Of a DNA stretch of 64,000 bases, positions 50,324 through 54,109 are shown piece after piece. Origin of the DNA: Coprobacillus sp. (GTDB lineage Bacteria; Bacillota_I; Bacilli_A; Erysipelotrichales; Coprobacillaceae); contig JAVWHX010000001.1 of assembly GCA_036639875.1 (NCBI GenBank), positions 87,155-151,154 on the forward strand, read 5' to 3'. A model generated the notes under the pieces. That model did no database searches. It was given only the letters and a program-made list of their open reading frames with translations, and had not been told where the DNA came from. Position 1 is the first letter of the stretch. Each line of letters begins with the position of its first letter. The translations under genes and the position numbers were made by a program.

Positions 50324-50657
50324 TTCGTCTCAGTCTCCTTTCTTTTTTCTTGACAGGTTCTTCTACACTTTCAGTAACTTCTTTCACTTCTTCTAATGGA
50401 AGCTGAAATTGTCCTTTTTCAATAAATCTAAACTCATTACTTCTTAGTAAGTAAAATCCATCCACATGATCCAATATCAATTCCTCATCCCCAATAACAG
50501 TCAGTGAACCATTAATTTTACCAATACATGGAGCATGATCTTCCATAATCAATAATCCGAAATTTTTATCCTTTACTCGAATACATTTGACATTATCAAT
50601 TTTCTTAACTCCCTTTTCAAAGGAGCACATTGAAAATTTAAGAGAACTTTCACTCAT
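50307..50657 (-). CDS. F1 epsilon-like subunit (beta-sandwich domain only)
   Basis: [27 protein letters not shown]...VDGFYLL parallels the canonical epsilon GELGILPGHAPLLT...V.GGF pattern. The C-terminal helical hairpin is replaced by a charged tail. 4-nt overlap with the beta gene. Confidence 0.65.
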
Positions 50658-52006
50658 GATAAAGCTCCTATAAAGCTAAAACTGTCTTCATCTATTTCAT
50701 CATGTATACCATTTAAAATGGCTTCAACATCATTTAATACATCACCTATTTTCACAAATGCTCCAGGTATTCCTGTATAATTTTCTGCTACAAAGAATGG
50801 TTGAGTAAAGTAATTACGGATTTTTCTTGAACGATTAAAGATATCTTTATCATCTTGACTTAATTCTTCAATTCCTAAAACTGCAATAATTTCCTCCAAC
50901 TCTTCATATCTAGACAAGTAGGCAATGACTTTTTGTACTAATGCATAATGTCTTTCACCTATACGATCTATGTCAATCAACTTACTTGTTGTTTGAAAAA
51001 CATCAATTGCTGGATAGATTCCTTTCTCCGCAACCTTTCTACTTAATACGATTTGTCCATCCATATGTGATGAAATCGTTTGAACTGCACTATCTGTCAA
51101 ATCATCAGCAGGGATATAAATAGCTTGAAAGCTCGTTATACTACCTTCACCAGTTGAATTAATTCGTTCTTCTATTTCTGAAACATCTTCCTCTATCGTT
51201 GAAGGATATCCATTTTCAATTGGCATATTATGTAATTCAGCATTGATTTCACTCATTGCTTGAACATAACGATAAATATTATCTATAAACAACAATACAT
51301 CTTGTTTCTTTTCATCTCTTAAATATTCAGCAATGGTTAAACCCGAAAAGACTGCTTTACTTCTAGATGTTGGATTTTCACCCATTTGTCCAAAGACAAT
51401 AGCCATTTTATCTAACAAATCAGCTTCTTTCATTTCATCATATAACTCTTTACCTTCTCTACTTCTTTCACCTATTCCAACAAAAACTGAATTTGAATGT
51501 AATCCTTGATAAACATTATGTATTAATTCTTTAATCAACACAGTTTTACCAACCCCAGCACCCCCAAGCAAACCCATCTTATAACCCTTTTGCATTGGTG
51601 CAAAGAAATCTAAAACTTTAATTCCTGTCCACAAGACATCTCCATCAATATCAATTTCTTCAAATCCCATTCGACGTTCGTAAACACTCTTTTCATTCTT
51701 TTCTAGAATTATTGAATCATCAATTAATCTTCCATATGAATCAAACACTTTACCGAGTATTTCATCATTATATTGAATTTGAATTGTATTCTCTTCTAGA
51801 TATACATCTAGCCCTTTTTTTAATCCATCAATACTAGAAAAAGGAATAGCTATTGCGATATCTTCATCTACTTTTTGCACTTCAAACTTTAATTCTCTAT
51901 CTTCTAAGGACGCATATAACACATCACGATATTTCACATTAACATCTCTATCTATTAGTATTCTAATATTTAATTCAGAGATTGATATAATTTTTCCTGC
52001 TCTCAT
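50654..52006 (-). CDS. F1 beta-like catalytic subunit
   Basis: Walker [21 protein letters not shown], catalytic GIGERSREG, Walker [33 protein letters not shown], and a DELSEED-equivalent GIEELSQDD. Confidence 0.9.
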
Positions 52007-52788
52007 ATATGTTCTCCATTCTTAAATCTTCCATAACTTTCAATCGTTTTTCTAAATTGTTTTGTCTTATTTGCTTTACGTGTTGCACGAAGTTCTATTT
52101 CATCTCTTTCATCTATCTTTTTCAAAGATTCACTCGTTGTATTTTGTCTTAGAATATTCTCTGCAGCATTTGTATTTATGTGGCTAAGTTCTACTTCATA
52201 ATATATATATAATACAATCATTTCTTTTAATAATTGTTGGATATCATTCTCACATAAATAGTCTTCTTGATAACCATCATCATTAGATTCTATGACAAGC
52301 GGATAAACCTTTTTGGTTTCTAAATGTATATCACTTACACTTTGAAAACGATTGAAAATGATATTGATTTCTTTATATTTCATTGATAAAAACGCTTCGC
52401 TTAAGACTTCATATAATTGAGACGGATTCTCTTCAAATTCTTCTTTGCTACATTTAAGAATAATATTATGATTCCCCTTCGTCAGTTTTCTTCCTATAAT
52501 TATTTTATCTGCATCGCTATCAGCTAATAACCTTTGATTAACAAGTGAATTGTAACTACTACAAAAACCAAAATCACTTCCAAAATAAATATGTAGTTTT
52601 TTTGCACTTTCTGAAGGTTGTAAAATATTCTTATCAAGAATAAAATTCTTGTTATTCATAATTTGATCAATCATCATCGAAACTTCATTTTCTAAAATAA
52701 GATATTTCTCAGCTTTTCTTCGTGATGCATCAACGCGTAAAAGTGAATGAAAGTTCATAACTTTAACAACATTTTTAATATTAGACAT
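52003..52788 (-). CDS. F1 gamma-like subunit
   Basis: 261 aa. N-terminal helix [26 protein letters not shown] (compare [23 protein letters not shown]). C-terminal helix [21 protein letters not shown] (compare ASEHAARMTAMDNATDNA). Sits between the alpha and beta genes as in atp operons. Confidence 0.7.
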
Positions 52789-52792
52789 ATGG

Positions 52793-54109
52793 TTATTCCA
52801 TAAATGCAGAAAAAATCTGTACCATTTCTTCTACATCTTTTGCAGAATATTTATATTGTTTAAATGCTTCAAGAAGTTTTTGACCACGTCTTAATTTTGT
52901 TTGAAGTGCTTCACCCATTTCATCAATATTCGCTAACTCATAAATATCTCGTGTTTCCAAATAACTTAAAAGTTCACGTCTTGTTTTACTTCCTATTTTT
53001 TTAACTTGTTTTTCTTGTACACTTCCTCCTAATCTTGATACACTCAAACCATAATCAATCGCCGGTTTTTGCCCTTTATCAAAATTCTTCTTACTTAATA
53101 CAATTTGTCCATCAGTGATTGAAATAATATTCGTACTTATATACTCTGTTATATCTCCACCTCTTGTTTCCATGATAGGTAAAATCGTAATACTTCCTCC
53201 ACCAACATGTTGACATCCTTTTTCTAAAAGTCTTGAATGTGTATAGAAAATATCACTTGGATATGCATCTCTTCCTGGTTCTTTTCCTGTCAATAATGCT
53301 ATTTCACGATAGACATCTGCATGACGTTTTAAATCATCAATAACTACCAATACATCCTTACCCTGCATCATATAATCTTCTGCTATTGATAAACCAACAT
53401 AAGGTGTCAATGACATAACAGGAGGCTGTTCATCATTGTTCGCACAAAGGATAATTGTATGCTCCATTGCCCCTTGATACATAAGCTGTTGATAAATATC
53501 TTTAACTGACTTCTTTGTTTTCCCAATAGATATGTAAATACACAATACGTCTTTACTTTTTTGATTACAGATTGTATCTAAAGCAATTTGTGTTTTTCCA
53601 GTTTTTTTATCTCCAAGAATAAGTTGTCGTTGCCCTTTTCCAATAGGATACAATAAATCGATACCTGATATTCCTGTATACAACGGTCTATTAACACTGT
53701 TTCTTGACATTATTGATATTGCATTATGTTCAATGGGTTGTGATTTATAGTTTGCAAAATACTGTGCATTCATCTGATCTTTCCCAAACATATCGACAAT
53801 ATGTCCAATTGAATCTTCACTAAAAGTTGCTTCAAATTTTCTCCCCGTTAGTGTTGCTTCATCTCCTACATAGATATCCTTTTCTATCTTCACTAATGAT
53901 ACAATGACACTATCTTCTTTAATAACATTAATATATCCTTTTGCTTTATTCCCTATTTGAACTTCTTCAAAATAACCAGCGTTCATTAAACCTTTGATTT
54001 CTACAACATATTTGTATATGCGTATGATTCTTCCAGTTTCAAAAACATTAGTTGAAGCTTGCATATTATGAATCTTGCTTGTTATTTTTTCTTTCATAAA
54101 ATCATTCAT
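52793..54109 (-). CDS. F1 alpha-like subunit (C-terminally shortened)
   Basis: Walker A QLILGDKKTGKTQIALDTICNQ, VVIDDLKRHADVYREIALL, GREAYP-like GRDAYPSDIFYTHSRLLE, ITDGQIVL, and PAIDYGLSVSRLGG (arginine-finger region). 438 aa, against roughly 500 aa for typical alpha subunits. Confidence 0.9.
   Translation of the reverse strand: MNDFMKEKITSKIHNMQASTNVFETGRIIRIYKYVVEIKGLMNAGYFEEVQIGNKAKGYINVIKEDSVIVSLVKIEKDIYVGDEATLTGRKFEATFSEDSIGHIVDMFGKDQMNAQYFANYKSQPIEHNAISIMSRNSVNRPLYTGISGIDLLYPIGKGQRQLILGDKKTGKTQIALDTICNQKSKDVLCIYISIGKTKKSVKDIYQQLMYQGAMEHTIILCANNDEQPPVMSLTPYVGLSIAEDYMMQGKDVLVVIDDLKRHADVYREIALLTGKEPGRDAYPSDIFYTHSRLLEKGCQHVGGGSITILPIMETRGGDITEYISTNIISITDGQIVLSKKNFDKGQKPAIDYGLSVSRLGGSVQEKQVKKIGSKTRRELLSYLETRDIYELANIDEMGEALQTKLRRGQKLLEAFKQYKYSAKDVEEMVQIFSAFME

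Follow-up and report, generated by a model that had tools for sequence, protein, structure and literature searches.

A 64,000-nucleotide stretch of a Coprobacillus sp. genome (assembly GCA_036639875.1, contig JAVWHX010000001.1, positions 87,155 to 151,154; hereafter the window) carries on its minus strand three adjacent genes whose products resemble the alpha, gamma and beta subunits of F1-ATPase (50654-54109; all coordinates are window positions). Rotary F-type ATPases are textbook ion-coupled machines, and databases annotate the subunits encoded in this cluster as 'F0F1 ATP synthase'. The locus raises the question of whether this label is correct, or whether the genes are decaying paralogues or parts of a motor put to some other use. 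Judged from sequence, with a probability of about 0.6, the region is the F1 core of a complete and functional rotary ATPase derived from F1Fo, which would act as an ATP-consuming motor and as neither an ATP synthase nor an ion pump. Its most likely role is to spend ATP on driving a machine at the surface of gut bacteria.

The three genes occupy the middle of a run of 12 co-directional genes that are separated by small gaps or overlap at their start and stop codons, and such overlaps extend across the F-like core, from gamma as far as the gene of a 230-residue protein. The gene order is a giant surface protein, a 518-residue protein, a c-like subunit, a 250-residue protein, alpha, gamma, beta, an epsilon-like subunit, a 167-residue protein, the 230-residue protein and a second giant, which is divided into two open reading frames (ORFs) of 489 and 3091 codons.

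The catalytic head and its conservation

The beta-like catalytic subunit (450 residues, 50654..52006, minus strand; PF00006, E=1e-67) was compared with all PDB chains, and F1 beta chains were matched at E=1e-118 to 1e-99. Its motifs with canonical counterparts are GGAGVGKT, GIGERSREG, [12 protein letters not shown], QAIYIPADD and GIEELSQDD. The second of these contains the catalytic Glu and the neighbouring Arg, and the last is located opposite the DELSEED segment. The protein contains [25 protein letters not shown] and EELSQDD; in the alignment with solved F1 beta structures, [29 protein letters not shown] and GIEELSQDD correspond to [13 protein letters not shown](S/T)[15 protein letters not shown] and GM(E/D)ELS(E/D)ED, respectively.

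The alpha-like subunit (438 residues, 52793..54109, minus strand; PF00006, E=2e-72) matches solved alpha chains at E=1e-100, with GDKKTGKT aligned to GDRQTGKT and SVSRLGG aligned to SVSRVGG. The alignment starts at residue 6–9 of canonical alpha and ends at about residue 437–445 of chains that are 500–513 residues long, so that about 60 C-terminal residues are absent. The truncation is a family trait because 75–83 residues follow the SVSRxGG motif in nearly all alpha orthologues. Opposite the catalytic Glu of beta, a Lys replaces the canonical non-catalytic Gln (window positions ~53480-53500, alpha-like residues ~204–210, YISIGKTKKS), and Lys is found at this site in 78 of the 79 orthologues. 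The alpha-like subunit is predicted to stay non-catalytic, with a different residue. The gamma-like central shaft (261 residues, 52003..52788, minus strand; PF00231, E=2e-21) covers positions 13–268 of the 285 in the Pfam profile and keeps both terminal helices, in which the family alignment contains invariant blocks.

The beta-like and alpha-like subunits are 44% and 40% identical, respectively, to those of the Fusobacterium nucleatum enzyme. The matches of beta, alpha and gamma lie above chance level, the epsilon assignment discussed below being excepted. Beta identity within the family has a minimum of 56% and a median of 65%. The P-loop, GERSREG and the Walker-B Asp are invariant among 82 beta-like orthologues, in which the DELSEED equivalent retains the pattern G-[IV]-[ED]-E-L-S-x-x-D, and the P-loop Lys and SVSRLGG are invariant among the 79 alpha-like orthologues. 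The first-pass annotation of this stretch had listed as retained the beta motifs (Walker A, catalytic Glu, Walker B and EELSQDD), Walker A and SVSRLGG of alpha, and both terminal helices of gamma, and had put alpha roughly 60 C-terminal residues and gamma about 25 residues short of their canonical lengths. The alignments with solved F1 chains, the orthologues and the Pfam profile bear out each of these statements (for gamma, 261 residues versus 285 profile positions), and the orthologue alignment contains no substitution at the P-loop Lys, the catalytic Glu or the Arg finger.

A gamma-like alignment was scanned against one genome per species (185,579 species), yielding 279 loci. Eighty of these were fetched and six were added by protein lookup, giving a sample of 86. 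All six F-like genes are intact and of the expected size in 63 of the 69 loci that span c to epsilon; the six exceptions comprise three start-codon artefacts of the ORF caller and three loci without a c gene. Selection was estimated as the ratio of non-synonymous to synonymous substitution rates (dN/dS; Nei-Gojobori medians over 21 independent pairs). The c gene is the most constrained of the cluster (0.020), followed by gamma (0.046), alpha (0.051), beta (0.054) and epsilon (0.093), such that these F-like genes span 0.020–0.093. The ratios for the 518-, 230-, 250- and 167-residue proteins are 0.109, 0.138, 0.168 and 0.176, respectively. The invariant catalytic residues, the intact loci and ratios near 0.05 thus support the earlier proposal that these genes encode a working machine and are not in decay, in so far as comparative sequence data can speak to function.

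The sole disrupted F1-like gene among the loci is an alpha-like gene that is split into two ORFs on a 5.4-kb contig of a metagenome-assembled genome (MAG; L018:2-1244), by a frameshift or an assembly error. At another locus (L066:10783-11592), about 0.8 kb separates gamma from beta and the beta ORF is 521 codons long, for which an insertion or an N-terminal extension is possible.

The c subunit, the membrane module and the candidate stalk

The c-like subunit (54874..55119, minus strand; PF00137, E=1e-7) is a two-helix hairpin of 81 residues that starts at Met13 of a 93-residue ORF; sister MAGs also annotate 81 residues. Among solved structures it best matches the Na+-type c1/c2 subunits of Acetobacterium woodii (4bem; E=4e-10 and 1e-7). 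The residue aligned to the Na+-binding Glu of A. woodii c2 is a Thr. Across 73 c orthologues this column contains T in 45, A in 11, S in 6 and V in 6 (68/73), and D or E in none. The cytoplasmic loop of canonical c subunits contacts gamma and epsilon. In the window this loop reads GRNPET; GRNP is invariant in the orthologues, and E follows it in 71 of 73.

No protein of the cluster matches ATP-synt_A, the model of subunit a, in Pfam or NCBIfam. The 167-residue membrane protein (49820..50323, minus strand), in which a hydropathy scan indicates four transmembrane-like segments, has no detectable relative. Neither it nor its 32 orthologues match ATP-synt_A even at E=10, a profile of the family against the PDB found no subunit a, and the family alignment contains no invariant column and no conserved Arg. 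AtpR was matched by one of 33 members at E=0.12, which is noise. The neighbouring 230-residue protein (49131..49823, minus strand) has an N-terminal anchor and a presumably extracellular domain with the motif FLYDG-x-x-TYIF. It is specific to the cluster, with 234 representative clusters that are almost all 220–300 residues long or fusion forms, and in about 19 loci it is fused to the 167-residue protein (~405 residues). In these loci (e.g. L042:12485-13702 and L023:12465-13676), the fused gene is followed by that of an additional protein of ~470 residues with a 230-type domain.

The family's distance from ordinary F-type enzymes is also apparent in the scores against the curated cut-offs of NCBIfam (bits, score versus cut-off). 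Among the F-type equivalog models, only that of beta is passed (474 versus 463, TIGR01039); alpha (402 versus 484 and 444 versus 554), gamma (51 versus 194) and c (24 versus 44) do not reach theirs, and epsilon has no match. The window proteins are also below the cut-offs of the V/A-type models. The loss of the c carboxylate, the lack of a detectable subunit a, the failed cut-offs and the divergence together imply that this is not an ordinary ATP synthase.

The remaining two F-like proteins are more difficult to assign. The epsilon-like protein (116 residues, 50307..50657, minus strand) occupies the atpC position and has no match in Pfam or NCBIfam. Its family ranges from 85 to 158 residues, compared with 139 for E. 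coli epsilon, and consists of a conserved β-rich core of ~85 residues with variable, non-conserved tails. Four of the 12 weak matches of the family profile to the PDB are epsilon or mitochondrial delta chains (E 0.57–1.9), PF02823 is the only Pfam family to match more than one of 36 members (two members, best E 0.0035), and hhalign against the single E. coli epsilon sequence yields a weak local match in the GELGIxPGHAP region. This weak but specific similarity and the gene position indicate that the protein is likely an epsilon N-domain without the C-terminal helices. The loss of these helices had been claimed from the first reading of the locus, and this is borne out in part: no conserved C-terminal domain lies beyond the ~85-residue core, and the similarity to epsilon is itself weak.

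The 250-residue protein (54122..54874, minus strand) is located between c and alpha, in the atpF-atpH position, and is a candidate for the peripheral stalk. A homologue search with it returned nothing beyond itself. Single-sequence AlphaFold2 models of the epsilon-like and 250-residue proteins (pLDDT 38 and 48.6, respectively) were too poor for fold searches, and their secondary-structure strings alone were used, with caution. The model of the 250-residue protein, of low confidence, begins with an N-terminal transmembrane helix that continues into a helix of ~100 residues, followed by short helices and terminal strands. The C-terminal β motif D-x-x-I-C-E-G-I-x-I...L-Y-D-Y-S-I resembles the C-terminus of delta/OSCP. 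The top PDB match of a C-terminal profile is the C-domain of chloroplast delta (E=0.26, weak), hhalign against E. coli delta recovers the same motif (E=0.02, weak and local), and of 34 family members six match PF00213 OSCP (best E 0.026) and two match PF05405. From these three independent weak signals and synteny we infer a b-delta-like stalk in which b and delta are apparently fused.

The surface proteins and the proposed role of the motor

In nearly all loci whose flanks are covered, the F-like genes have giants and collagen-like proteins as flanking neighbours. In the window, the upstream giant (1972 residues, 56708..62626, minus strand) comprises an N-terminal anchor, a run of 23 G-X-Y triplets from about residue 270 (PF01391 Collagen, E=1e-7) and fn3/Ig-like repeats; models of collagen-like adhesins match it over the repeat only. 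Upstream giants of related loci are ~1650–2000 residues long, many of them ending at the locus border, and a giant gene also follows the cluster. The 518-residue collagen-like protein (55139..56695, minus strand) has an N-terminal anchor, a Gly-rich run of 18 G-X-Y triplets from about residue 256 and an Ig-like region. The upstream giant is related to this protein in its N-terminal part, and the hidden Markov model (HMM) of the 518-residue family also matches upstream giants. At least eight consecutive G-X-Y triplets are present in 63 of 69 orthologues, at a fixed distance from the anchor. The downstream giant (489 + 3091 residues, 38365..49113, minus strand) begins with an anchor or signal and carries near its C-terminus a transmembrane helix followed by a KKRK tail. 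Pfam and NCBIfam searches of the giants and accessory proteins identified collagen and fn3 only and no relation to the gliding proteins of Mycoplasma, and neither database has a model of the accessory proteins.

In one sister MAG (L085:1-5299) the upstream giant is encoded as at least 518 plus 1429 residues, and in L084:1-5299 as 1965 residues. The giant genes may be prone to strain-level interruption, possibly as on/off variation.

In the mechanism that we propose, ATP hydrolysis in beta would turn gamma-epsilon and the attached c-ring against a stator formed by the b/delta-like protein and by a module of the 167- and 230-residue membrane proteins, which would replace subunit a. With no ion to carry, the motor would pass its work on to the co-encoded surface proteins, as torque or as a conformational cycle in or across the membrane. 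Such a motor would move, tension, assemble or turn over a large collagen-stalked structure on the surface of these Gram-positive gut anaerobes. The C-terminal domain of bacterial F1 epsilon inhibits ATP hydrolysis, and loss of its helices would remove this auto-inhibition, which fits a dedicated hydrolase. F1-derived motors that serve surface systems have precedents in the G1-ATPase of Mycoplasma mobile (PMC11864180) and in the Type 3 F1-like X0 of mycoplasmas (PMC12994834). The remodelling of the peripheral and regulatory parts, combined with purifying selection on catalysis, had been taken at the outset as a sign of neofunctionalisation, and the family-wide truncation of alpha, the lost c carboxylate, the undetected subunit a and the co-encoded giants strengthen that view. 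A more far-reaching form of the proposal is tentative: the cluster would encode an unrecognised surface organelle in which an ion-blind c-ring rotor turns or cyclically actuates trimeric collagen-stalked giants through the Gram-positive envelope, a new machine for motility, adhesion or remodelling that is widespread in gut and rumen Clostridia and exchanged across phyla.

Several observations weigh against a surface-directed rotary motor. The connection between motor and surface proteins is drawn from synteny and a single gene fusion. The 167-residue protein, which would belong to the stator, is poorly conserved. By sequence, the epsilon and b/delta assignments stay below threshold, and the models of both proteins are poor. 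In three Lachnospiraceae loci (L033, L034 and L041) no detectable c gene adjoins the F1 genes and the order is rearranged (250-residue protein, alpha, gamma, beta, epsilon, 167-residue protein, giant, 518-residue protein), so that the c-ring may not be indispensable. An ion site made of non-carboxylate ligands is conceivable. Finally, an in-frame TAA at 47644-47646 (minus strand) divides the downstream giant. In two sister MAGs and a Logan contig this codon is GAA (Glu) and the product is a single protein of 3582 residues; the 489-residue product has no exact database match, as the sister MAGs carry the sense codon there. The TAA may be a strain-specific nonsense mutation or a base error, and the system may be impaired in this strain.

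Other explanations were weighed against the same evidence. The hexamer and shaft could energise secretion, unfolding or insertion of the giant and collagen-like proteins, with rotation of the c-ring not being the output. F1 and the type III export ATPases (FliI/FliJ, SctN) are homologous, the window proteins score 180–216 bits on the best FliI/SctN models, the giants are cargo-like, and the downstream part of the divided giant has no N-terminal signal of its own. Nonetheless, scores of at most 216 bits are far under the cut-offs of these models (380–715), and the window has distinct alpha and beta genes in place of a single homohexameric ATPase. All of the surface proteins have ordinary Sec-compatible N-terminal anchors or signals, Pfam and NCBIfam revealed no export-gate homologues in the cluster, and strong selection keeps a non-catalytic alpha, a c subunit and a stalk-like protein that an export ATPase would not need. 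We regard an export or assembly ATPase as rather unlikely. An active F1-like head on a c-ring that serves as a static membrane anchor, with conformational changes of head and stalk acting on cytoplasmic or membrane partners, is a still weaker candidate. The three loci without c speak for it, as does the M. mobile G1-ATPase, which works without a c-ring (PMC11864180), whereas the strongest constraint in the cluster (dN/dS 0.02) and an invariant GRNP loop in c are what is expected if coupling to a rotor matters.

An ion-coupled F-type synthase or ATPase with a divergent Fo would require the 167-residue protein to be a cryptic subunit a, c to bind H+ or Na+ in a non-canonical manner, and the giants to be mere neighbours. 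The genes follow the order of atp operons (c, b/delta-like, alpha, gamma, beta, epsilon), beta just passes the atpD cut-off (474 versus 463 bits), and c is nearest to the Na+-type subunits of A. woodii. This explanation is nevertheless improbable: none of the 73 c orthologues has a carboxylate at the ion site, the 167-residue family has neither similarity to subunit a nor a conserved Arg, alpha, gamma and c score well under the F-type cut-offs, the giants belong to the conserved operon at nearly every locus, and hosts such as butyrivibrios already possess a complete canonical F0F1 (PMC4478896). The view that these are atp paralogues in decay or without function, or that the cluster is an artefact of assembly, has a negligible chance of being correct. 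The split alpha of L018 and the nonsense codon in the downstream giant would be accounted for, but the catalytic residues are invariant, dN/dS is ~0.05, 63 of 69 loci are intact, and the same cluster occurs in isolates and independent assemblies. A motor that consumes ATP on behalf of surface proteins is the explanation that we prefer.

Related machines, distribution and significance

In common with canonical F1Fo (atpBEFHAGDC), the cluster has the catalytic residues, the RxP of the c loop, the subunit types and the order c, (b/delta), alpha, gamma, beta, epsilon, with epsilon and b/delta as putative members. It differs in having no detectable subunit a, a c subunit without the carboxylate, apparently one 250-residue protein for b and delta, a shortened alpha, an epsilon that probably lacks the C-terminal helices and six additional genes that encode membrane proteins and giant surface proteins. 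The N-ATPases (atpDCQRBEFAG) are a second, laterally transferred F-type operon beside the canonical one, as the present cluster may also be, but they have subunit a, an ion-binding c, AtpQ/AtpR and a different gene order, and the window proteins fall short of the alt_F1F0 cut-offs (416 versus 752 and 369 versus 750).

To our knowledge, the sole known re-purposed versions of F-type ATPases are two types specific to Mycoplasma, one of which has been called 'without equivalent in other bacteria'. The Type 3 F1-like X0 of the MIB-MIP system resembles the window cluster in its F1-derived alpha, beta, gamma and epsilon, intact Walker motifs and non-Fo membrane proteins. It serves a cell-surface system, is needed for MIB-MIP and is an extra copy beside a genuine F1Fo (PMC12994834, PMC3369863). 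Its gene order is different (12-transmembrane protein, small protein, gamma, epsilon, 87-kDa protein, alpha, beta; PMC3369863, PMC12994834), and a c subunit is missing. In the Mycoplasma alpha the N-terminal helix is absent, whereas the alignment of the window alpha to canonical alpha begins at residue 6–9. The window proteins are below the Type 3 MSC_0618/0619 cut-offs (395 versus 570 and 326 versus 520), and the cluster contains no MIB or MIP genes.

Gli349 and Gli521 of M. mobile are about 3,200 and 4,700 residues long. The Type 2 G1-ATPase of this organism (PMC11864180; PDB 9io5) is, like the motor proposed here, an ATP-hydrolysing F1-like machine thought to drive giant surface proteins. 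Its beta has a long N-terminal extension (784-residue chain), and it forms dimers arranged in cytoplasmic chains, with no c-ring (PMC11864180). The window beta has 450 residues compared with the 705 positions of the Type 2 model, the MMOB1670/1660 cut-offs are not reached (391 versus 850 and 399 versus 600), and 9io5 is no closer to the window proteins than canonical F1. Simple membership of the family in the Mycoplasma Type 2/3 lineage is rejected on the cut-offs, the gene order and the comparison with 9io5. Since it keeps the c subunit and the stalk-like protein that the Mycoplasma clusters lack, the cluster could be an intermediate of the kind that gave rise to the Mycoplasma F1-like machines.

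In Omnitrophota, whose genomes are rich in giant ORFs, a non-respiratory F-type ATPase adjoins type-4a pili and a role at the surface or in attachment has been proposed; its alpha was reported to cluster with Mycoplasma Types 2/3 (PMC10066038). By this description the system differs from the present one in its phylum and in its partner genes, which are pili. With regard to function alone, ion-driven 5:2 rotary motors power very large surface adhesins, as GldLM does in Bacteroidota; the proteins are unrelated and an ion gradient takes the place of ATP.

The fetched loci belong mainly to Lachnospiraceae, Oscillospiraceae, Peptococcaceae/Peptococcia, Family XIII and unclassified Bacillota, and the cluster is also carried by some Erysipelotrichaceae-like genomes, by Bifidobacterium colobi and by Coriobacteriales MAGs. 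HMM annotation of all loci recovered the order 518-residue protein, c, 250-residue protein, alpha, gamma, beta, epsilon, 167- and 230-residue proteins almost everywhere. Tannockella kyphosi and a Lachnospiraceae contig have the same gene series including both giants, and MAGs named Coprobacillus sp. carry near-identical clusters. Thousands of proteins match the beta-like subunit; the best 120 are 68–100% identical to it, 449–505 residues long and encoded in assemblies from guts and rumens. For the gamma-like protein, 1129 relatives turned up in gut and rumen metagenomes. No canonical atp operon lies within the 86 loci. The cluster occurs in butyrivibrios (L052, L060), and rumen butyrivibrios all have a complete canonical F0F1 (PMC4478896), which suggests that the cluster is an extra F-type set in these bacteria.

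The G+C content of the cluster tracks that of its locus, from 0.26 to 0.66. The Actinomycetota carriers (L004, B. colobi LC6; L024, L037 and L080, Coriobacteriales MAGs) have a locus-matched G+C of 0.50–0.60, and the Coriobacteriales beta-like proteins are closest to those of Family XIII Clostridia (74–75%). This suggests cross-phylum transfer followed by amelioration. Two MAGs each contain two divergent copies of the whole cluster (L006 and L071 in CALWLW01; L036 and L039 in JAEEIH01). The beta-like protein of the isolate 'Thermoguttaceae bacterium LCP21S3_D1' (L028) is 100% identical to that of a Roseburia MAG (L031), with identical gene coordinates, and the taxonomic label or the assembly purity of L028 looks doubtful. 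In the window, the operon is flanked by ordinary chromosomal genes (enolase, HtpG, a phosphotransferase system, GH1 glycosidases and ABC transporters), and promoter and terminator scans yielded no enrichment over shuffles in this AT-rich DNA.

The open-access literature yielded the Mycoplasma and Omnitrophota work and no description of the Clostridia/Erysipelotrichaceae cluster. We place the cluster among the F1-derived motors that would serve surface systems, set apart by the kept c subunit and stalk-like protein, the lost ion coupling and the collagen-like giants. Strong selection maintains F1, c and the stalk-like protein in this family, in which both elements of ion coupling have been lost, and the 'F0F1 ATP synthase' labels will mislead metabolic reconstructions of gut anaerobes. 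Cultured carriers, namely Tannockella kyphosi, Bifidobacterium colobi LC6 and Lachnospiraceae bacterium G11, offer a testable system for the role of a c-ring that is unable to carry ions and for the export of torque across a Gram-positive envelope.

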